DNA of 59,019 nucleotides, taken from Acholeplasmataceae bacterium UBA5617 (GTDB lineage: Bacteria > Bacillota_I > Bacilli_A > Acholeplasmatales > Acholeplasmataceae). A program made the translations under genes and the position numbers. Below the pieces are notes generated by a model. That model had not been told where the DNA came from and searched no databases. It saw only the letters and a list, made by a program, of their open reading frames with translations. Within the stretch, counting starts at the first letter, position 1; each line of letters opens with the position of its first letter. The stretch lies in assembly GCA_002424575.1 (NCBI GenBank), contig DIKN01000009.1, positions 1-59,019 on the forward strand. The letters run 5' to 3'. Of the stretch, positions 25,899-37,576 are shown one piece after another.

Positions 25899-27455
25899 CT
25901 AGAAGGCTTCTGAAACTGTTTTTCCTTGCATATGTAAGATTAAGTAATCTGGACCGCCTGCTTTTGAATCGGTTCCACTCATATTGAATCCACCAAATGG
26001 TTGATAGCCTACGATAGCACCGGTGCATTTGCGATTCAAGTAGAGATTCCCAACATGAAATTCTCTTCTTGCTTGTTCTAGATGCATCCGATTACGTGAA
26101 ATGACAGCCCCTGTTAAACCATATTCTGTGTTGTTTGCGACCTCAATCGCTTCATCAAATGATCGGACTTTACAAACAGCTAAGATAGGACCAAAGATTT
26201 CTTCTTGCATCAATTTAGAATCCGGTGCCAAGTCTTTATATATCGTCGGCTGTATAAAATATCCCTTGGTACCATCAGCAACCCCACCAATAACTTTTTT
26301 GCCTTCCTGATCTCCAATTTCAAAGTAGGATGAAATCTTTTTAAAAGCATTGGCATCATTGACAGGTCCCATGAATGTCTGTGGTAGTGTCGGATCACCG
26401 ACAATCAACGTCTTCGTGATATTCGCCATTTTATCGATCACGGCATCATATACTTTTTCATGAATGATTGCACGGCTACACGCTGAGCATTTTTGTCCTG
26501 AAAAACCAAACGCTGATTTCACGATGGCATCAGCTGCTAAATCGAGATCAGCATCCTCATCCACGATGATAGCATCTTTACCACCCATTTCAGCGATGAC
26601 TCGCTTCAGCCATATTTGCCCTTTTTGGACTTTGGCTGCTTTTTCATAGATCGACATGCCCACTTCTTTTGAGCCTGTGAACGAAATAAAACGAATTTTA
26701 GGGTGATTAACGATATAATCACCGATGACTGCACCTGATCCAGGAATGAAGTTTGCAACACCTGCAGGTAAACCTGCTTCTTCTAAGACTTCAACAAACT
26801 TATATGCGATGACTTGCGTTGTTGAAGCGGGTTTAATCAACACGGTATTTCCTGAAACGATGGCAGCTGAGGTCATACCCGTTAATATAGCAAGTGGAAA
26901 ATTCCAAGGTGAAATGATGGCGCCTACGCCTAGAGGAATGTAGGTATATTCATTTCGTTCCATGTCTTTTCGCGATAAAACAACATCATCGATGTGAGTG
27001 AGTTGAAGCATTTGACGTCCATAATACTCGAGAAAATCGATGGCTTCTGCAACGTCAGCATCCGCTTCTGCCCATGGTTTTCCAGCTTCTTTGGTCATGA
27101 GTGCTGCAAACTCAAACTTACGACGACGAATAATGCCAGCCGATTTGAAAAGGACATCAGCACGAACTTTTGGATCAACCTTTTTCCAAGTCTCAAAGGT
27201 TTTAAGTGCGACTTGCATCGCAAGTTCTGCCTCTTCAAGTCCAGCTTGAGAAATGGTACCCACCACTTCACTGAACTGAGCAGGATTTAAAGAAACCATC
27301 TGTTTACTGGTCTTGATCCGTTTCCCTCCAATGATTAAATCATAGGTGTGACCCAGATAACTTTCAACTGTTTTTAACCCTTGTTGATATTTTTTAATGT
27401 TCGCTTCTTGTGTAAAATCTGTAAGCAATTCTGTTTGATAGGGATAAATCGCCAT
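25899..27455 (-). CDS. pruA: 1-pyrroline-5-carboxylate (glutamate-5-semialdehyde) dehydrogenase
   Basis: [56 protein letters not shown]. Confidence 0.95.
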
Positions 27456-27471
27456 GTCAACTCTCCTTTTT

Positions 27472-28617
27472 TTAAACGACTGATTTTTCGGTATGGATGA
27501 TGTCTTGATCTTTGAATCGGTGGATATCGAGTGAGGTCATATCCATCGATGGTGTTTCTCCTAAAATGATCTCTGAAAGCAATAACCCTGTCATTGGGGC
27601 TAGCATGAAGCCGTGTCCACTAAACCCACAAGCCATGTAGAAACCTTTGCATTGATCGGTTCCACCTAGAATGGGTTGACGATCGGGTGACATGTTATAC
27701 GATCCACCCCACTGTCTGACGACACGAAGTTCAGCAACCTTTGGCATGATATCGACAAGTGTTTTTGACATCAGATCTAAGAAAGACCATGTGGATTCAA
27801 TATGATGGTTTCTTTCTACATGTGGATTGCTGCGACCCATGAGGAATGCGCCATGAGGAACTTGCTGGCAATAAATATTTTTTGAAAATGACATCACCAT
27901 AGGACCTTGCATCTTTTCAACCGGTTCAGTTGCCAGTATTTCATGATTTTCAGCATATACAGGGATATCTACCCCCGCCATTTGACCTATTTCATACGAA
28001 TATCCACCAGCAGCATTGACCAAAATCGTTGTGTCATAGACGTTTTTATTGGTGATGATGCGTTTCACTTGGTGATTTTCAACGATGATTTCTTTCGCTT
28101 CTTCAAAGAAGGAGAAGGTGACACCCAATCGTTTTGCTGCAAGCATGTACGCTTCTGTCATTTTAAAGGGATTGAGATGTCCATCGGTTTGACAATAGGT
28201 TGCACTATAAAAAGCTTCTGGATTCAAATGAGGAACTATCTTTAGTGCTTCCTCTTTGGTCAATTGCTTTGAAGGAATGCCCAACCGATTTTGTAAGGCA
28301 ACATTCTTTGTAAATTGCTCATGTTCATTTTGAGAGGTTGCTAAAATGAGATAACCTTCTTGCTTAAATTCAAGATCACCATGATAATCAAGAATCTCTT
28401 TTGCATGCTCAAAAAATTCAATACTTTTTTTCGCAAGGAGACAGTTCATTTCAGTCGCCCATTGTTGACGAACGCCAGCACCACAACGACCGGTTGCACC
28501 GCTTGTAAAATAGCTTTTATCGATGACATGAATGTCCTTCATGCCTTTTTTTGCAAGATTATAGGCGATCGATGCACCACTAATTCCTGCACCAATGATC
28601 AAACAATTAACGTTCAT
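27472..28617 (-). CDS. FAD-dependent oxidoreductase, sarcosine oxidase beta / dye-linked proline dehydrogenase catalytic subunit-like
   Basis: [32 protein letters not shown]; GGAGG RBS at corrected start 28617. Confidence 0.82.
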
Positions 28618-28888
28618 CGTCTTGATCCTCCGCAATCTTTTTAAGAGGTACACCCATCACGAGTGGTCTGACTTTATGAACGGGTATTTCTTCCACTGAT
28701 TTTCCGAGGAATTTAGCGATTTCACGCTGAATGAGATGTCCACACGTATTGGCTTGACAGGGTCCCATACCGACACGAAGAAGTCGTTTTAAATCTTCAA
28801 ATGTGGTATAACCTTGTTCTAATAATTGATGAATTTGTTTTAATGATACATCTTCACAACGACAGATAATGACGTCTTCTTTTCTCAT
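28607..28888 (-). CDS. BFD-like [2Fe-2S]-binding subunit
   Basis: ICRCEDV...LKR..RVGMGPCQANTC...RP. Confidence 0.85.
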   Translation of the reverse strand: MRKEDVIICRCEDVSLKQIHQLLEQGYTTFEDLKRLLRVGMGPCQANTCGHLIQREIAKFLGKSVEEIPVHKVRPLVMGVPLKKIAEDQDDER

Positions 28889-29364
28889 AATCTTACCCTC
28901 ACCGTCACAAAATCATAAAGATAGTCAACAGGCACACTGACTGTCACAACAGCTGTATGATCTGTCTTTGATGAGATAGCAACTTGCTCGATTAAGGCAT
29001 CGCAAATGATCTCTCCAATGCGATTAATACCATCCCAGATCTGACCTTTCTCAGGCATGGGTAAAAACTCGTATGGAATTTTAAAGACTGCACGATCACC
29101 CTTTATCTGTGCAATAACTATGGCAAGTCCTGGACAACTGGGGACACACACCGCACAACCTGTGCATAAATCAGCGTGCAACTGCGGTTGTTTATTGATA
29201 TTTTCACCAATTTCAATCGCATCAAATGGGCATGAAGTTGAACAAGGATTACAGGGAATATCTTCGTAACACTCGAGAATAGCTTTAGGTTTGATCAATA
29301 CTTTTCGATCAGGAAAACGTGAAAGAACTTGATCTTTTGTTGGTATACCGGTTTTATTGAGCAT
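28885..29364 (-). CDS. 4Fe-4S ferredoxin-domain subunit
   Basis: CYEDIPCNPCSTSCP and CTGCAVCVPSCP. Confidence 0.85.
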   Translation of the reverse strand: MLNKTGIPTKDQVLSRFPDRKVLIKPKAILECYEDIPCNPCSTSCPFDAIEIGENINKQPQLHADLCTGCAVCVPSCPGLAIVIAQIKGDRAVFKIPYEFLPMPEKGQIWDGINRIGEIICDALIEQVAISSKTDHTAVVTVSVPVDYLYDFVTVRVRL

Positions 29365-30448
29365 GGATGTCGTCCTTTCTCAGTTTTTCGAGTCCTATTT
29401 TAGTCTTAATTCCAAATGGACCGTTGCGTAACATATCGAGTTCGTATTCGTATTTTTCTTTCAATGCATCTGAATCGGGATGAGGTCTTTGCATATCGGT
29501 TGCGACATAGAGTCCCGTCAAGTAACCTTCCATCATCGCAGAACTTGCTTCTTCAATGCCCACAGCGTCGCCACATGCATAAATACCTTTAACCGTGGTT
29601 TGATGATGGTCATCGATGATAGGGACAAAACCCCCTAATTCGTTAATATATTTCGTTTTTGCATTGACCATGGATAAAAGTTGATGCATCGGGGATAACC
29701 CAACAGAAATACAGAGTGCATCAAGAGACATGATGCGTTCTGTTCCGAGTAAAGGTTGCCATTTGGCATCCAAATCGATAAGTTCTACAGCTTCTAGATG
29801 ATCTTTCCCCATCGCACGTTGCACCGTTGTCGATGTCCAAATGGGAACACCAAGACGTCTTATCTTTGATGCGTGCACTTTGTATCCACCGATGGTAGGT
29901 GCAGCTTCAACGATACCTTTTACATGAACACCAGCTTGTAGGAGTTGATAAGAGACGATGAGTCCAATGTTACCACTACCTACCATGATAATCTCTTGAC
30001 CGGGTAAAACACCGTACAAATTCATCAGTGTTTGGACAGCTCCAGCACCATAAATACCGGGTAAATCATTGTTTTCAAAGGCTAAAAACTTTTCACTCGC
30101 ACCTGTAGCCACAATGATTCGATCCGCTTGATATCGTGTATATGTTTCATGTTGATATACGGTAACAACGCGATCGGGATATAGTCCGACTACGGTTGCT
30201 TCTTTTAGAATAGTGATGTGGGGATGATGAATCACTTGATCGATTAAAATCTTTGCAATATCAAAGCCACGTGTTTTTGCGTATTGTGCTTTTGAACCAA
30301 AAAACTTATGGGTCTGTTTGATCAGTTGCCCACCAAGTTCAGGACTTCGATCAATAATCAAAACATCAATACCTGCTTCAGCTGCCATTTTTGCAGCACA
30401 TAAACCTGAAGGTCCACCACCTATGATGATGAGTTCGTGATGTTTCAT
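29354..30448 (-). CDS. NAD(P)/FAD-dependent oxidoreductase (sarcosine oxidase alpha / PdhA-like)
   Basis: GGGPSG, GGQL, ATGA, NDLPG, GSGNIG, CGDAVG. Confidence 0.85.
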   Translation of the reverse strand: MKHHELIIIGGGPSGLCAAKMAAEAGIDVLIIDRSPELGGQLIKQTHKFFGSKAQYAKTRGFDIAKILIDQVIHHPHITILKEATVVGLYPDRVVTVYQHETYTRYQADRIIVATGASEKFLAFENNDLPGIYGAGAVQTLMNLYGVLPGQEIIMVGSGNIGLIVSYQLLQAGVHVKGIVEAAPTIGGYKVHASKIRRLGVPIWTSTTVQRAMGKDHLEAVELIDLDAKWQPLLGTERIMSLDALCISVGLSPMHQLLSMVNAKTKYINELGGFVPIIDDHHQTTVKGIYACGDAVGIEEASSAMMEGYLTGLYVATDMQRPHPDSDALKEKYEYELDMLRNGPFGIKTKIGLEKLRKDDIHAQ

Positions 30449-30750
30449 CGGATGACCCCCTTATCAGTCTGTCTTTCAATAATCATGCCGGCGACGAGTG
30501 GTGTGATACATGTTCGAACATTCGGAACTCCATTGACCATCATGTTGCACGATGCACAATTACCAATAGCACAATAAAAACCGCGTGGACGGTCTTTTTT
30601 GATTGAATAACTGAGTGTGGTCACTCCGAGTGCATGGAGTGCAGATGCAATCGTATCACCTTTATAACCAACAACGTGTTGACCTTCAAAAATAAAAGGA
30701 ATGGGTTCCTTTTTGGGAAAGTTTAAAATGGGGTGCTTATCAATGCGCAT
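30445..30750 (-). CDS. [2Fe-2S]-binding subunit (Fer2_4 type)
   Basis: GDTIASAL, RPRGFYCAIGNCASC...NVRTC. Confidence 0.85.
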   Translation of the reverse strand: MRIDKHPILNFPKKEPIPFIFEGQHVVGYKGDTIASALHALGVTTLSYSIKKDRPRGFYCAIGNCASCNMMVNGVPNVRTCITPLVAGMIIERQTDKGVIR

Positions 30751-30848: not shown

Positions 30849-30871
30849 AAAAAAGAGGGTTGCCCCTCTTT
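30849..30871 (-). terminator. Intrinsic terminator closing the gpx-ohrR-rib-HAD operon
   Basis: AAAGAGGG-gcaa-CCCTCTTT plus T-run on the minus strand. Confidence 0.75.
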
Positions 30872-31520
30872 AAAGGATTGTTAAGATTTCTTTAAGATCA
30901 TGGATCACATGATCAGCATCTTTAAATTCACTGATGTGTCCATATCCATAGGCACAACCGATGGTGATTGCACCATTGGATTGACCAGTCTCAATATCTA
31001 AATAACGATCTCCAATCATGACCATAGGCTGCTTTAAACGCGACTTGATGTGCGCAAGAATGTCCTTTTTCGGCAGGAAATGATACATCTCTGAACAAAT
31101 CATTTCATCAAAATATTGGTCAAGTTGAAAGGCTTTTCTCATTGTTTCCATATAATAATTTTTTGAGTTAGAGAGATAAATCAATGTATATCCTTTATTT
31201 TTTAGCGCTTGGAGAACTTCGCGTGCATGTGGATATAATTGCGCCTGATTTTTTTCAATCGCCTCTAGCATGGCATCACTGATGATTTGACTAGCTTTTA
31301 ACATGACGTCATCTTCCAAACCAGGCATGAACATTCTCCACATATCTTTGGGGTTCATACCTATAAAATGCTTGACGTCATCTTGTGTTATGCTTTGATG
31401 AAGTGTGTAACCTTGATTCTTCAGATAATCAACACTTTTCAACAGTGCAGGGTAATAAATGACGATACTCTCATGCAAGGTCCCATCCCAATCAAAAATG
31501 ATGGTTTGTGGTTTTTGCAT
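30870..31520 (-). CDS. HAD-family phosphatase (candidate ribitylamino-uracil 5'-phosphate phosphatase)
   Basis: FDWDGTL, LSN, K, IGDRYLD; starts 5 nt after the ribBA stop. Confidence 0.82.
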   Translation of the reverse strand: MQKPQTIIFDWDGTLHESIVIYYPALLKSVDYLKNQGYTLHQSITQDDVKHFIGMNPKDMWRMFMPGLEDDVMLKASQIISDAMLEAIEKNQAQLYPHAREVLQALKNKGYTLIYLSNSKNYYMETMRKAFQLDQYFDEMICSEMYHFLPKKDILAHIKSRLKQPMVMIGDRYLDIETGQSNGAITIGCAYGYGHISEFKDADHVIHDLKEILTIL

Positions 31521-31525
31521 AAGAT

Positions 31526-32722
31526 TTAGTCTTTAAACTTAAGCATGTGACCCATTTTTTCTTTTTTGGTTCTCATGTAAAGTTCATTGCGTTCATTGTG
31601 ATTGAGTTGGATGGGTTCACGTGATGTAATTTCTAAACCGTGACCAGTTAAACCTTTTAGTTTGAGTGGATTATTGGTCATCAGTTTCACTTTGGTAACT
31701 CCCAAATCAGATAAGATTTGTGCACCAATGCCGTAATCTCTTAAATCTTCATCAAAACCCAATGCAAGATTGGCCTCAACGGTATCCATCCCTTGATCTT
31801 GAAGACCATATGCTCGAATCTTATTGATTAAACCGATTCCACGACCTTCTTGACGCATGTAAAGTAAAACGCCTTTTCCTGCTCTTTCAATCTTATCTAA
31901 AGCGGCTTGAAGTTGCTCACCACAATCACATTTCAACGAGCCAAAAGCATCACCCGTTAAGCATTCTGAGTGGACACGAACTAACACTTCATCACCAGGT
32001 TTGATATCACCTTTAACTAATGCAACATGATGTTCGCCATTTAATGCATTTTCAAAACCAATCATGCGAAATTCTCCATGTGAAGTTGGAAGATTAGCTT
32101 CTGCAGCACGTTTGACTAAGCTTGCATCCTTTTTACGATATTCAATCAATGAAGCAATGCTAATCATCATCCAACCGTTGGCTAAAGCGAGATCTTTGAG
32201 TTCATCGATCTGATAAAGAACTCCGTTGGATTTGATCATTTCAACGGTTAACCCCGCGGGATAAAGACCAGCCATTTCGGTTAAATCCATGATTGATTCA
32301 GGGTGACCGGCACGCTTTAGCACACCACCTTGACGTGCAACAATCGGGAAGAGTGAACCATGTTGTTTAAAATCAGCTGGTTTTGCATCTTGGGATACCA
32401 AACGCAAAATCGTTTTTTCTAATCGTTTCAAGCCTTCATCTGATGACTGTGATAAATCTATGGTTAATCGCGTTGCATGTTCACTGATGATGGAACGTTC
32501 ATAGGTCGCTGGTATCTCTAATTCATTGAAACGTTCCTTCATTCCAACAATTGAAAAAGCACCTTCAGTCAGTGATCGAAAAGATTCTAACCACGATGCA
32601 GAGACATGTTCAGCTGCCATCACTATTTCTCCAACGTTATCATCATCGTCATCATCAATCACGATGATAGGTAATCCCTTTTTAATGGCTTCAAGAGCCT
32701 GTTCAACGGTATGACATTTCAT
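31526..32722 (-). CDS. ribBA: RibBA fusion: intact GTP cyclohydrolase II, degenerate DHBP synthase domain
   Basis: RVHSECLTGD..CDC, QEGRGIGL, TNNP intact; RENEGD replaced by DDNVGE, GLIC by GAFS, RPGH by QHGS, GHTE by GHPE. Confidence 0.92.
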   Translation of the reverse strand: MKCHTVEQALEAIKKGLPIIVIDDDDDDNVGEIVMAAEHVSASWLESFRSLTEGAFSIVGMKERFNELEIPATYERSIISEHATRLTIDLSQSSDEGLKRLEKTILRLVSQDAKPADFKQHGSLFPIVARQGGVLKRAGHPESIMDLTEMAGLYPAGLTVEMIKSNGVLYQIDELKDLALANGWMMISIASLIEYRKKDASLVKRAAEANLPTSHGEFRMIGFENALNGEHHVALVKGDIKPGDEVLVRVHSECLTGDAFGSLKCDCGEQLQAALDKIERAGKGVLLYMRQEGRGIGLINKIRAYGLQDQGMDTVEANLALGFDEDLRDYGIGAQILSDLGVTKVKLMTNNPLKLKGLTGHGLEITSREPIQLNHNERNELYMRTKKEKMGHMLKFKD

Positions 32723-32724
32723 GT

Positions 32725-33837
32725 TTATTTTTCCTCCTGGTTTGTAAAATAACCTTCAATCATGAGATCATCATCAAAGGATCTATATCTGATATTGTTT
32801 AATAAATAGGCGTCTTTCATCATCGATATGCCATCACCACCAACGGGTGTAAGTGCTTCTTTTCCACCGATGATTTTGGGTGCGATAAAGACATAAGCTT
32901 TATCAACAATCTGTGATTCAATCGCGGTGGCATGAAGATAGGAACCACCCTCAATGAGCACACCATCAATCTTTTGTTCGCCAAGATAGGTCATGAACAT
33001 CTCAAGATTAAAGGAATGCATGGGCTGTTGAATGATGCGAACACCACGTGATTCATAGTCTCTAAAGCGTTTAGATTCAATCTTTTGATCGATAATCAGC
33101 CATGTCGGTTGAACCTTGGCTGATGTCACCACATAACTTGTTAAAGGTGTGTTGAGTTCGGGATCGATGACCAATCGAATGGGATGACGTGAGGGCGTGT
33201 TATTTCTTCTCGTATCCAAATGTGGATCATCAGCAATCACCGTGTTAACACCAACCATAATCGCCATGTATTGATTGCGTAATTCATGTACAAAAGCCCG
33301 TGATTTTTCATTCGTAATCCATTTGGAATCGCGTGTTTTTGTAGCGATTTTACCATCTAGGGTCATCGCATATTTGATGGCAACAAAAGGCTTTTTTTGT
33401 TGAATATACTTTAAGAAAATTTCATTTTGTCGTCTTGCTTCATCTTCGAGTATTCCACTTTCTACTTCAATACCAGCATCTTGGAGCAATTTGACACCTT
33501 TACTGTTGACCAGTGGATTGGGATCGAGTTGACTGATAAAAACACGCTTGATCTTTTTCTCGATAATTTTTAGTGCACAAGGTGGTGTTTTGCCATAGTG
33601 AGAACAAGGTTCTAATGTGACATACATGTCCGCACCTTCGACATCCTCAGTGGCGTGAAGAAATGCATTGACCTCTGCATGTGCGTGACCAAAACATTCA
33701 TGGTACCCTTCACCGATGATTTTGCCATCTTTAACGATCACAGCACCAACCAAGGGATTGGGATTGACAAATCCTTTGCCCTTTTCTGCAAGTTCGAGTG
33801 CACGTTTCATGTACATGATGTTTTCATGATGACTCAT
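32725..33837 (-). CDS. ribD: Bifunctional pyrimidine deaminase/reductase RibD
   Basis: PNPLVG, HAE, LEPCSHYGKTPPC, TLDGKIA, SKWIT, EGG, APKIIGG. Start corrected to 33837. Confidence 0.95.
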   Translation of the reverse strand: MSHHENIMYMKRALELAEKGKGFVNPNPLVGAVIVKDGKIIGEGYHECFGHAHAEVNAFLHATEDVEGADMYVTLEPCSHYGKTPPCALKIIEKKIKRVFISQLDPNPLVNSKGVKLLQDAGIEVESGILEDEARRQNEIFLKYIQQKKPFVAIKYAMTLDGKIATKTRDSKWITNEKSRAFVHELRNQYMAIMVGVNTVIADDPHLDTRRNNTPSRHPIRLVIDPELNTPLTSYVVTSAKVQPTWLIIDQKIESKRFRDYESRGVRIIQQPMHSFNLEMFMTYLGEQKIDGVLIEGGSYLHATAIESQIVDKAYVFIAPKIIGGKEALTPVGGDGISMMKDAYLLNNIRYRSFDDDLMIEGYFTNQEEK

Positions 33838-34267
33838 AGGATTCACCATCACCATCTTCACGATGGATTTTATTTAATATTGCATAGAGTTGTTTTGCAT
33901 CTTCTTCATTCACAGCAAACGATTGGAAAACCTCAAAAGGGATATTTTTAGCCTCTTTTGCTAATTGTTTGCCTTGCTCTGTTAAGTCAATCCAAACCTT
34001 TCGTTCATCTTTATCATCGCGTGTACGCTGAATACGCCCATCTGCTTCGAGTTTTTTGAGAAGAGGTGTGAGTGTGCCAGAATCCAGGGATAGACGCGCT
34101 CCTAAATCGGATACCGTTTGATGGTCTTCTTCCCAAAGTGCAATCATGGTCACATATTGTGTATACGTCAATTTGAGTGGATCAAGGAATGGCTTATAAT
34201 GCTTGATGACTTGTCGTGAACTCGAATAAAGAAGGAAGCATAACTGATCATTGAGCTTCCATGTCAT
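33824..34267 (-). CDS. ohrR: OhrR-type MarR organic-peroxide sensor (single Cys)
   Basis: DQLCFLLY with the reactive Cys, LTYTQY, LDSGTLTPLLKKLE, DER. Confidence 0.88.
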   Translation of the reverse strand: MTWKLNDQLCFLLYSSSRQVIKHYKPFLDPLKLTYTQYVTMIALWEEDHQTVSDLGARLSLDSGTLTPLLKKLEADGRIQRTRDDKDERKVWIDLTEQGKQLAKEAKNIPFEVFQSFAVNEEDAKQLYAILNKIHREDGDGESYESS

Positions 34268-34783
34268 TTAAATCACCTCTTCAATGTAGGGTGCAATCTT
34301 ATCGGGGGTAAACCCAGGACCGAAACGGTGAATGACTTGCCCTTGGCGGTTAACGAGGAACTTGGTGAAATTCCATTTGATGGAGGTGTTGGGTAATAAA
34401 CGTGATAACAATGTGTTCTTCCCATGATCACCTAAATCTTTCTTTTTTTCGTTTCTTAAATACTTATAAAGAGGATGTGCTTGTTTACCATTGACATCAA
34501 GTTTAGCAAAAGTCTTGAACTGTGTACCATAATTAAGTTCACAAAACGACTTCAGTTCTTGATCAGTCCCTGGAGCTTGATTCATAAACTGGTTGCATGG
34601 AAAATCTAGTATTTCAAAACCTTTCTTGCGATATGTCTCATAGATCTTCTCAAGACCTTCATACTGTGGCGTTAGGCCACACTTGGTTGCTGAATTAATA
34701 ATCAACAATACTTTTCCTTCGTATGCTTTGAGTGATACTTCTTTTTGATCAACATCTTTCACTGTAAACTGATAAACTGACAT
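34268..34783 (-). CDS. gpx: Cys-type glutathione peroxidase family (probably thioredoxin-dependent)
   Basis: ATKCGLTPQY, FPCNQF, FCELNYG (resolving Cys), IKWNFTKF. Confidence 0.92.
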   Translation of the reverse strand: MSVYQFTVKDVDQKEVSLKAYEGKVLLIINSATKCGLTPQYEGLEKIYETYRKKGFEILDFPCNQFMNQAPGTDQELKSFCELNYGTQFKTFAKLDVNGKQAHPLYKYLRNEKKKDLGDHGKNTLLSRLLPNTSIKWNFTKFLVNRQGQVIHRFGPGFTPDKIAPYIEEVI

Positions 34784-34814
34784 ATTTAATCCTCCGAGTT
34801 AAATCTATATTTTA

Positions 34815-34851
34815 TACAACTTAATTTTATCAAATATAATTGTATAATCAA
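34815..34851 (-). promoter_or_regulatory. gpx operon promoter covered by a tandem OhrR-like operator
   Basis: Minus strand TTGATT-16-TAAAAT (extended -10). TACAATTATATTTGA-TAAAATTAAGTTGTA (34815-34844) matches the B. subtilis ohrA repeat TACAATTAAATTGTA at 12/15 and 13/15. Confidence 0.75.
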
Positions 34852-34865
34852 ATCATTTGCTTTTT

Positions 34866-34893
34866 AAAAAATGAACCCATCTATAGGGCTCAT
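34866..34893 (-). terminator. Intrinsic terminator after carotenoid desaturase
   Basis: ATGAGCCC-tatagat-GGGTTCAT plus T-run on the minus strand. Confidence 0.65.
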
Positions 34894-36359
34894 TTCTTAT
34901 GTTTTTGAATCAAATCGAAAGCAATCAATGCCGATTGATAAATCGTCGGTAATCCACTACCTGGATGTGTTCCACCACCAACCAAATAAAGGTTTTTAAA
35001 TTCTTCAAAACGATTATGTGGTCTTAAAAATAGCATTTGATCCAAGCCGTGCGCTAAATTGAAAACCGCACCACGATAGATATGTTCTTTTTCTTGCCAA
35101 TCATGTGGTGTGTAAATCATTTCTTCTTCAATAAGTGGTTCAAGGTCAATACCATGATGCTCTTTAATCATATTCAAGACCATATCTTTCATCTGCATGT
35201 TATGTGCATCCCAATCTGTGACATGATGCATATTGGGAACCGGGACGAGAATGTAGAGTGAACTCTTACCTTGCGGTGCGAGTGTCTCATCGATTCGACT
35301 GGGGTTGTGCACATAGATGGATAGATCATCGGTTTTTTTACCATCCATGAGGGTATGAAGATAAGCATCATAATCCTTGGAGAATATGATCTCATGATGA
35401 GGAAAATCGAGCATTTGATGAATACCTAAGTAAAGCATCCACGTGGAAACCGAGTATTTTTTCTTTTGTAGTTTTTCAGGGGTATATTTTTTGAGGTGTT
35501 TTGGGTTGAAAAGCGATGTCATGCCATATGCAAAATCAGCATTCATGATGCAAAGATCCGTATCTATCTCATCACCCTTTTCCGTGATGACGCTTTTGAC
35601 TGTTTGATGTTCAACCACAACTTCTTTGACAGGTGTTGAAAGGTTCAATCGGCCACCGCATGAAATAAATAATTTTGCCATCGTTTCATTGATCTGATTA
35701 AGACCGCCTTTGACATGGTACAAGCCACCTGCATGTTCGAGAAAGGGTAAAATGGTGAAAATGGAAGGTGCTTGATAAGATGCCATGCCCAAATATTTTG
35801 CTTGAAAGGATAAACTGTGAATGAAATGTGGGTCTTTGCTATAAGCAGATAACATCTTATACACCGATTGAAAAGGATGTGCGTAGGGTGCTGCTTTTAA
35901 AACATCCTTTCGAAAGAGATGAAAGATGTTGGGAAATGGTTTTTCAAGAATCGATTTAATTGCACCAAATTTTTGATGTTGATCATCCATCCACTTCAGA
36001 TAAGCATCTCCTAAACCGGGATGTAAATCATCAAATGCATTGACGTTATCGTGTGGGTCTTGCCTGATTTCAAGCGTATGTTTTGGATAAACCAAGCGAT
36101 ACAGTGGATCCAGTTTGATGAGCGAGAGTTCCTGATCAAGATCAAATCCAGAGCGCTTAAATACAGTTCTTAATACATCGACATACATGAGGAATGTAGG
36201 TCCCATGTCGAAATGATAATCACCCAATGTGATTTTTTTACTACGTCCACCGACGCGATCATCCTTTTCAAAAATGGTCACATCATAACCCTGTTTGATA
36301 AGCATTAAACCTGCAGCTAACCCGCCAGGACCAGCGCCAATAATGACTACTTTTTTCAT
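34890..36359 (-). CDS. crtI: Phytoene/diapophytoene desaturase family (CrtI/CrtN)
   Basis: IIGAGPGGL, FDMGPT, YLGM, IYVHNPS..D..LAP, GGGTHPGSGLPTI. Confidence 0.85.
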   Translation of the reverse strand: MKKVVIIGAGPGGLAAGLMLIKQGYDVTIFEKDDRVGGRSKKITLGDYHFDMGPTFLMYVDVLRTVFKRSGFDLDQELSLIKLDPLYRLVYPKHTLEIRQDPHDNVNAFDDLHPGLGDAYLKWMDDQHQKFGAIKSILEKPFPNIFHLFRKDVLKAAPYAHPFQSVYKMLSAYSKDPHFIHSLSFQAKYLGMASYQAPSIFTILPFLEHAGGLYHVKGGLNQINETMAKLFISCGGRLNLSTPVKEVVVEHQTVKSVITEKGDEIDTDLCIMNADFAYGMTSLFNPKHLKKYTPEKLQKKKYSVSTWMLYLGIHQMLDFPHHEIIFSKDYDAYLHTLMDGKKTDDLSIYVHNPSRIDETLAPQGKSSLYILVPVPNMHHVTDWDAHNMQMKDMVLNMIKEHHGIDLEPLIEEEMIYTPHDWQEKEHIYRGAVFNLAHGLDQMLFLRPHNRFEEFKNLYLVGGGTHPGSGLPTIYQSALIAFDLIQKHKK

Positions 36360-37576
36360 GTTCTTAAACGGGCATCTGCATCTTTAAATTCTTGAATGAA
36401 ACGCCGCATTTCCTCCATTAATACAGTATCAGGTGCACCTTTGAGCACCATGCCATCCAAATACATCATCGACTTAATGATGGGAAACATTCCTTTTTCA
36501 AACACCATACCTGAATGGACACCTAATTTGATGGTTTCCATCATTTTGCGTGTCAAACTCACCTCTGAGACGGTTTTTCCAGCAAAATCATGGTAGAGAT
36601 CTAACATTTTTTGATGATAAATATCAAACTGCTTGCCAGAGATTTCTTGATCAGCCATATGATTGAGTGCATGCGCACACCCATCGTAATCGTATTCAGA
36701 TAAGAAGGTCATAAACTCAAATAGACCCGCTTGAATCTTTGGACCAACTTTCGAAATTGCACCTGTATCGATAAAATAATAGTCTTGACCTTTGACGATC
36801 AGATTTCCTGGATGAAGATCTCCATGGAATGTACCTATCAAAAAGATGTAAAATCCATGGATATGAAAGATTTCTAAAATATCGTTAAAAGGCATCTTTT
36901 TTGCCTTCAAAAGATCATCTGCAGTCGGTCCATCGATGAACTCAGAAACCAAAACATGTTCCGATGATAGATCTTCATAGATTTTGGGAAACTTCAAACG
37001 TGAAAGATCAAACTTCTCCTTATTCTTTTCATAAATATCTTTGAGAATCTTACCGTGTGCGATTTCATTTCGTAAATCGAGTTCAGCTAAGGTGTATGCT
37101 TCAATGTGTTCAAGGATACCGACAGGATCAGCAACTTTAGCAAGCTTAGGATAAAAGAAAATGACGAATTTGATTAATCGTCGCAAGGATTTTACATCTT
37201 TTTCAAATGACTTTTTAAAGTCTTTTTTAATGACTTTGACAACAACGCTTTCACCTGTTTTGAGCGTTGCAAGGTGAACTTGCCCCACTGAAGCACTTCC
37301 TAGTGACTTTCTTTCGATGGATAAAAACGATTCATGCCAAGTGGGTGTGGTGTAACTATGAAGTAAATCAAAAAAATTTTCTTCTTTAATCGGTGTTGTG
37401 TGGGTATAAAGCTGCGCAAGATGTGTGCATGTTTCTTCGCTTAAAAAGTCGATTCTTAAGGCGAAAGTTTGCGCGATTTTGACCGCTAATAATCCCTTTT
37501 TTTGAATGTAATCCAAATCAGGAAGTTTTCTTGAGAAAATCATTTTAAATAACTTGATAAACACCAGCCAGCGCAT
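36356..37576 (-). CDS. UbiB/ABC1 (AarF) atypical kinase-like protein
   Basis: VKIAQ (KxGQ variant), GSASVGQVH, VVVK, ELD..NE, HGDLHPGN, IDTG; 4-nt overlap with crtI. Confidence 0.87.
   Translation of the reverse strand: MRWLVFIKLFKMIFSRKLPDLDYIQKKGLLAVKIAQTFALRIDFLSEETCTHLAQLYTHTTPIKEENFFDLLHSYTTPTWHESFLSIERKSLGSASVGQVHLATLKTGESVVVKVIKKDFKKSFEKDVKSLRRLIKFVIFFYPKLAKVADPVGILEHIEAYTLAELDLRNEIAHGKILKDIYEKNKEKFDLSRLKFPKIYEDLSSEHVLVSEFIDGPTADDLLKAKKMPFNDILEIFHIHGFYIFLIGTFHGDLHPGNLIVKGQDYYFIDTGAISKVGPKIQAGLFEFMTFLSEYDYDGCAHALNHMADQEISGKQFDIYHQKMLDLYHDFAGKTVSEVSLTRKMMETIKLGVHSGMVFEKGMFPIIKSMMYLDGMVLKGAPDTVLMEEMRRFIQEFKDADARLRT

Follow-up and report, generated by a model that had tools for sequence, protein, structure and literature searches.

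Organization of the unit

The 59,019-nucleotide (nt) stretch analyzed here, referred to as the window, is contig DIKN01000009.1 of Acholeplasmataceae bacterium UBA5617 (contig C55 of genome G000, a 1.5 Mb assembly that is 84.65% complete). It carries five minus-strand open reading frames (ORFs) in the order gpx-ohrR-ribD-ribBA*-HAD between two hairpins, combining a peroxidase and a putative OhrR-type repressor with genes for the pyrimidine arm of riboflavin biosynthesis. The features of the unit are as follows.

34871-34893 (minus): terminator-like hairpin ending a crtI-like gene, upstream boundary of the unit (-17.6 kcal/mol, z -6.8)
34830-34844 (minus): second, weaker OhrR-like box, 11/14 match to the Bacillus subtilis OhrR box, poorly conserved
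34815-34832 (minus): conserved OhrR-type operator (box 34815-34829, 12/14 by the B. subtilis operator sequence, PMC2651793), overlapping an extended -10 (34824-34832)
34268-34783 (minus): gpx, cysteine peroxidase of the glutathione peroxidase family, 171 amino acids (aa), catalytic motifs intact (PF00255)
33824-34267 (minus): ohrR, MarR-family repressor of OhrR/OspR type, 147 aa, single Cys in a QLCF motif (best match NF052638, below its cut-off)
32725-33837 (minus): ribD, bifunctional deaminase/reductase with the zinc and reductase motifs preserved (TIGR00326 score 360 bits, cut-off 156)
31526-32722 (minus): ribBA*, degenerate DHBP synthase domain (aa 1-198; DHBP, 3,4-dihydroxy-2-butanone 4-phosphate) and intact GTP cyclohydrolase II domain (aa 203-398; PF00925 and weak PF00926)
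30870-31520 (minus): HAD-IA phosphatase, candidate phosphatase for 5-amino-6-ribitylaminouracil (5-A-RU) phosphate, a homologue (34-45%) of the HAD behind ribH in full rib operons
30852-30871 (minus): hairpin resembling an intrinsic terminator, with a U tail, marking the downstream end of the unit (z -3.5)

The intergenic gaps along the unit are 0, -14, 2, and 5 nt, the ATG of ribD at 33837 producing the 14-nt overlap with the stop of ohrR. The ORF coordinates, these gaps, and the flanking hairpins agree with an earlier annotation made from the letters alone (the first-pass annotation), which had described five abutting or overlapping genes with terminators on both sides. A simple terminator scan listed the downstream hairpin and not the upstream one. 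The locus was also recovered, about 99% identical and in two contigs, from a second public sequencing run (X2), and the nearest named relatives of the window RibBA are Acholeplasmataceae records with 63-89% identity. In the following, g1 denotes the genus of the window, g2 a sister genus in the same family, and g26 a genus of another family.

State of the encoded enzymes

Alignment to Escherichia coli RibA (2BZ0) showed that the GTP cyclohydrolase II (RibA) half of ribBA* keeps 8/8 chosen positions, comprising three zinc cysteines and the Tyr and Arg motifs, and the same eight positions are kept in all 113 aligned rows. The DHBP synthase (RibB) half of the window protein retains 5 of 13 columns, which were picked by conservation and are near-invariant in intact RibBA, and its match to TIGR00506 is below the cut-off. 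Across 123 rows (some of them duplicates) the RibB scores are bimodal, with 12-13 columns kept in 79 rows, 2-7 in 44, and 8-11 in none. Mycobacterium tuberculosis RibBA and E. coli RibA served as references for the RibBA alignment, and the scored RibA residues and the RibB columns presumably have the catalytic roles that we assign to them. As well, the motifs of RibD, HAD, and Gpx and the cysteine motif of OhrR are intact across relatives. The first-pass annotation, which had called the RibA and RibD motifs intact and the RibB half eroded, was thus correct on both points, the RibD score lying well above its TIGR00326 cut-off.

Crude pairwise ratios of nonsynonymous to synonymous substitution (dN/dS), which are rough because most dS values exceed 1, are 0-0.04 for RibA (10 pairs) and 0.04-0.25 for the RibB half of ribBA* (10 pairs). 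RibD ranges over 0.04-0.23 in 9 pairs and HAD over 0.05-0.23 in the 5/9 pairs that were measurable. In two intact RibBA pairs, RibA lies at 0.04-0.06 and RibB at 0.05-0.09. Judged by these ratios, RibA is under strong purifying selection, and the dead RibB half is relaxed yet held in frame, as in plant RIBA3 (PMC3509567).

RibBA proteins with an eroded RibB half were also observed in Lachnospiraceae/Clostridiales operons (L078, L098, L105, and L106). These were set aside as a different phenomenon, because ribE and ribH are retained there.

Loss of the flavin arm and probable import of flavin

A search of the G000 genome for ribH, ribE, and a second ribB, which the first-pass annotation had proposed, found none of them in this assembly, and its statement that an FMN (flavin mononucleotide) riboswitch is missing was extended from the window to the whole G000 genome. 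No FMN riboswitch was found at any truncated unit scanned, and the element is present at full operons and at ribU-type genes. A survey of 172 genomes of the family detected ribA in 42, ribH in 13, and ribE in 13, with 30/42 ribA-positive genomes lacking both ribH and ribE (20 in g1, including G000, and 10 in g2). Among these 30, 17 are at least 90% complete and 2 are single-contig, so an assembly gap behind the missing ribH and ribE was ruled out. In g26, ribA is present in 8/10 sampled genomes, ribH in 0/8, and ribE in 0/5. Extra ribB matches among the 42 genomes occur only in the 4 that have ribH, split pieces of the same gene aside. The analysis supports retention of the pyrimidine arm without the flavin arm, as read from gene content, across three genera.

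Flavin is most likely imported by the carriers, because an FMN riboswitch lies directly upstream of an energy-coupling factor (ECF) S-component, a ribU-type importer gene, in 4/4 near-complete relatives, and ribF is present in 5/5 genomes checked. By its gene content, the unit is not a riboflavin operon: RibA and RibD are there, and an intact RibB, ribH/ribE, and an FMN riboswitch are not. That it makes 5-A-RU or its phosphate without making riboflavin is highly probable, and genes that databases name bifunctional RibBA here give no sign of riboflavin synthesis.

Two further observations concern the distribution of the rib genes. In L163 and L164 (G003 and G004, 94-99% complete), RibA with a dead RibB half occurs alone, with no ribD, ribH, or ribE. 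In G071, G084, and G090 (L140, L297, and L296), a separate ribE-ribBA-ribH operon without ribD is complementary to the OhrR unit, and this operon carries an FMN riboswitch in G071 and G090, the two in which upstream DNA is present. The RibD of the OhrR unit is the sole full-length RibD in these three genomes, which is indirect evidence that it works there.

Operator and predicted control by OhrR

The box at 34815-34829 matches the B. subtilis OhrR box at 12 of 14 positions and is conserved in relatives. Such a match is not rare alone, with 14 sites of this quality in the G000 genome; an operator matrix, built from 16 conserved sites scoring at least 30, gave one strong site in G000, which is at this promoter (36; next 17). 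The operator was also found, independently of the matrix set, at 6/6 g26 cassettes and in G009, G060, and G064. The tandem operator that the first-pass annotation had placed over the promoter therefore stands for this box, but the upstream copy at 34830-34844 (11/14) is poorly conserved. The N-terminal sensing Cys of OhrR, in the QLCF motif, is present in 27/28 rows, the remaining row being cut by a contig end.

According to previous studies, a gpx gene under control of an OhrR homologue (OspR) is known in Pseudomonas aeruginosa (PMC4999210), and the operator reported for B. subtilis ohrA (PMC2651793) resembles the window box. The unit looks like an OhrR regulon by sequence, and its control by OhrR is predicted with good confidence. 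An OsmC/Ohr-family gene, looked at for a possible replacement of Ohr by gpx, is present in 4/5 genomes, whether or not the module is.

Conservation and linkage

The five-gene order is complete on one contig in 17/22 g1 genomes fetched, and the other five are cut by contig ends yet consistent with it; two further g1 carriers lie outside the 22. The same five genes occur in 6/8 g26 genomes, between unrelated neighbours, so conservation of the order in relatives, another check suggested beforehand, was found in both genera. At every one of these units whose promoter was fetched, an OhrR box covers the -10.

In G009, gpx is missing from the unit, which consists of the box and ohrR-ribD-ribBA*-HAD. 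In 13/38 g1 genomes, ribA, ribD, HAD, and ohrR are jointly absent. Eleven gpx loci of these rib-less g1 genomes were fetched, and at 10 of them gpx carries a terminator-like hairpin of its own, with the next operon directly adjoining. The -10 is kept there and the operator half-site is gone; the matrix score is at most 13 in all 11, whereas the 16 training sites score at least 30. Judged from this distribution, it is the rib genes, not gpx, that ohrR accompanies, because G009 lacks gpx yet keeps the box, and rib-less genus-mates keep gpx without ohrR or the half-site.

Some g2 genomes (L166, L168, and L172) have ribD directly behind acyl-CoA dehydrogenase-like and electron-transfer flavoprotein (ETF)-like genes, as read by eye.

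Origin of the unit and a second truncated type

In 17/64 related loci that hold ribH and a gene behind it (L039-L107), ribH is followed by this HAD, giving the order ribD-ribE-ribBA-ribH-HAD. Loss of ribE and ribH from this order leads to the gene order of the window, and the unit is most likely derived in that way. The 31 dead-RibB proteins of the family form one supported clade (96/92), which g26 joins, and the nearest intact RibBA proteins, from Izemoplasmataceae and Bacillota records, are 55-58% identical.

Many rib operons of Bacillota and Izemoplasmatales were observed to have a member of this HAD-IA family behind ribH, and where the flavin arm has been lost, the HAD is still found with ribD (the two are adjacent in G002). 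The HAD enzymes reported so far for dephosphorylation of 5-A-RU-phosphate are nonspecific and from other species (PMC12051542). From its gene context, the present family is a candidate dedicated 5-A-RU-phosphate phosphatase.

A second truncated type, consisting of a dead-RibB RibBA and a RibD without deaminase motifs, was seen in G190 (single-contig, L287:4631-6813) and on a small contig of G071 (G071:C11, L002), with no ohrR beside the G190 locus. By its motifs, this type would stop at 2,5-diamino ribityl pyrimidine phosphate. The type is rare in databases, a homologue search giving four proteins only, and the best matches in a metagenome scan with its RibBA were 41-54% identical and mostly ordinary intact RibBA. 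An independent origin is suggested, as the second type stands apart in trees, yet a single clade is not rejected (approximately unbiased (AU) test, p 0.108).

Proposed function and alternative explanations

Following known enzymology, RibA and RibD are predicted to convert GTP to 2,5-diamino-6-ribosylamino-4(3H)-pyrimidinone 5'-phosphate (DARP) and then to 5-A-RU-phosphate, which the HAD would dephosphorylate to 5-A-RU. OhrR is predicted to repress the unit until its oxidized form releases the promoter, whereupon Gpx and 5-A-RU synthesis would be induced together by the oxidant. 5-A-RU, an easily oxidized ortho-diaminopyrimidine, would then likely be sacrificed in scavenging reactive species, whether of oxygen, nitrogen, or carbonyl type. 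The substrate of the HAD, co-transcription, oxidant induction, and the scavenger role are what we infer here. Taken as a whole, an OhrR-controlled oxidant-stress operon with 5-A-RU as scavenger instead of riboflavin precursor is a proposal that we rate slightly below even. A more tentative extension is that 5-A-RU may be a dedicated oxidant-inducible non-thiol protectant of these wall-less Acholeplasma-type bacteria, only the flavin-forming enzymes having been deleted and the rest wired to OhrR. The deaminase-dead type, possibly of independent origin, would then serve the same end with the 2,5-diamino analogue, and the carriers would be riboflavin auxotrophs still making the precursor of the mucosal-associated invariant T (MAIT) cell antigen.

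Previous studies offer some precedent. In yeast, DARP and its bare pyrimidine were reported to quench nitrosative species via the aminopyrimidine, independent of riboflavin (PMC7138843), and 5-A-RU-phosphate was reported by liquid chromatography-mass spectrometry (LC-MS) in A. laidlawii (PMC3942410). The first-pass annotation had suggested that the pyrimidine arm was rewired from flavin control to a peroxide response. This is borne out in part, by the arm kept without the flavin arm, the importer-type gene under an FMN riboswitch, and the conserved unit with ohrR and box. The F0/F420 route, treated below, found no support.

Several points weigh against the scavenger proposal. What yeast offers is a case of DARP acting on nitrosative species, not of 5-A-RU acting on peroxide, and in yeast RIB1 alone was needed, RIB7 and RIB2 being dispensable (PMC7138843). 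No report of 5-A-RU quenching peroxides was found in the literature searched, and the assignments in the LC-MS paper lose weight because the ribosyl precursor is reported there even for two species that do not carry the genes (PMC3942410). The joint loss of the module in 13 g1 genomes amounts to only 1-2 changes on a flanking-gene tree (10 genomes usable) and so does not provide many independent tests; one deletion would remove ohrR, ribD, ribBA, and HAD together. G060 and G064 have gpx-ohrR with the box but no rib genes, and the rib genes may just have landed behind an existing gpx-ohrR promoter. In g2, the ohrR orthologue is missing from 9/10 ribA genomes, ribA and ribD are often unlinked, ribD is absent in G003 and G004, and HAD occurs in 3/14, so that retention is nested as RibA > RibD > HAD; oxidant control is not needed for retention, because this genus keeps the genes scattered without ohrR. 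Moreover, RibA of G088 is broken by a frameshift, and neither a ribU-type gene nor its FMN riboswitch was found in the 85% complete G000, which may be an assembly gap. The roughness of the dN/dS ratios counts on the same side.

Instead of acting as a scavenger, 5-A-RU or its phosphate could be the precursor of a product made by enzymes elsewhere (a pigment, cofactor, or signal) and needed under oxidant stress. Keeping the reductase and the phosphatase at NADPH cost would suit such a defined substrate, and F420 is a precedent for diverting the pyrimidine arm (PMC13151069). However, in all three of its neighbourhoods the cassette is complete by itself and no further gene is common to them, and the RibA-only genomes and the deaminase-dead variant argue against a single strict end product; we regard this explanation as unlikely. 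The F0/F420 branch, for which the first-pass annotation had named 5-A-RU as the precursor, was rejected, with cofH/fbiC in 0/5 genomes. A folate bypass fed by RibA, of the Chlamydia type, was likewise rejected, with dihydropteroate synthase (folP, PF00809) in 0/5. The toxoflavin branch diverts the pyrimidine arm through ToxB/ToxE together with ToxA, ToxC, and ToxD. A cluster of this type was not found either: the unit holds no ToxA, ToxC, or ToxD genes, and a ToxD-like FGE-sulfatase family occurs unlinked in 2/5 genomes (ToxA and ToxC were sought at the unit only).

It is similarly doubtful that RibA is the selected activity, either as the source of a DARP scavenger or for hydrolysis of 8-oxo-(d)GTP, with RibD and HAD just disposing of reactive DARP. 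RibA is the most conserved part of the unit, and the nested retention in g2 and the requirement of yeast for RIB1 alone (PMC7138843) would fit, as would E. coli ribA, which is described as SoxRS-regulated and as hydrolysing 8-oxo-dGTP (cited second-hand in PMC6092379). Nevertheless, every complete five-gene cassette that was observed has RibD and HAD intact, and NUDIX hydrolases (6-8 in each of five genomes, rib genes present or not) weaken the case for RibA as a MutT substitute.

Least probable of the three is that the unit is a rib operon in partial decay, carried along behind gpx-ohrR or feeding 5-A-RU to partner microbes or to a re-acquired ribE-ribBA-ribH operon, with oxidant control incidental: gpx-ohrR does exist alone, 13/38 g1 genomes do without the module, and three genomes have the complementary operon, but purifying selection persists at near-saturated dS, losses are confined to flavin-arm functions, G009 keeps ohrR, box, and rib genes in a unit without gpx, and 30/42 ribA genomes lack any flavin arm that could be supplied.

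On balance, a trimmed vitamin pathway that is selected in three genera and tied to a repressor of the peroxide-sensor type points to another role for a well-studied intermediate. It makes testable whether riboflavin-pathway pyrimidines are physiological bacterial antioxidants, whether the HAD family is a dedicated 5-A-RU-phosphate phosphatase, and whether riboflavin non-producers are sources of 5-A-RU.

Neighbouring genes

Upstream of the unit, at 34890-37576, a crtI-family desaturase gene overlaps an ABC1/UbiB-like kinase gene, and this pair was also observed upstream of the unit in several genus-mates. On the other side, at 25899-30750, genes of 2Fe-2S, NAD(P)/FAD oxidoreductase, ferredoxin-like, BFD-like, and DAO-family types are followed by an aldehyde dehydrogenase gene, and these are kept across g1, rib unit present or not. 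We take this set to resemble a multi-subunit proline dehydrogenase with a pyrroline-5-carboxylate (P5C) dehydrogenase.

Comparison with known systems

No description of this layout was found in the searched literature, which was limited mainly to openly licensed papers, and the available parts of PMC4418817 and PMC3322544 add nothing on partial pathways. The closest relative in gene order is the Firmicutes rib operon ribD-ribE-ribBA-ribH(-HAD), whose RibD, RibA, and HAD are of the families found here and follow one another as in the window. Unlike it, the window lacks ribE, ribH, and the FMN riboswitch, has a degenerate RibB, and carries ohrR and the OhrR box; riboflavin is impossible here by the known route. 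Similar to the plant RIBA3 clade (PMC3509567), ribBA* is a bipartite RibBA with a dead DHBP synthase half and, here as predicted from sequence, an active GTP cyclohydrolase II. However, plants hold the full pathway via RIBA1, whereas most carriers have no intact ribB, ribH, or ribE.

The branches to F420/F0 (CofG/CofH, FbiC) and to toxoflavin likewise draw on the pyrimidine arm and do without the lumazine arm, but their committed downstream enzymes were not found in the five genomes (ToxA/ToxC at the unit only). With the gpx/ospR pair of P. aeruginosa (PMC4999210) and OhrR-ohrA of B. subtilis (PMC2651793), the unit has in common a gpx gene next to a repressor of the OhrR family whose Cys is N-terminal, and an ohrA-like operator. 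It differs in its three genes for small-molecule biosynthesis, a cargo not met in the literature searched. Finally, in the yeast Rib1/DARP tolerance (PMC7138843), a GTP cyclohydrolase II product was reported to protect the cell independent of riboflavin, as is proposed here. In yeast the pathway is complete and the protection is a constitutive by-product that needs RIB1 only, whereas the window carries a dedicated pathway, cut short but including RibD and HAD and linked to a repressor of the redox type.

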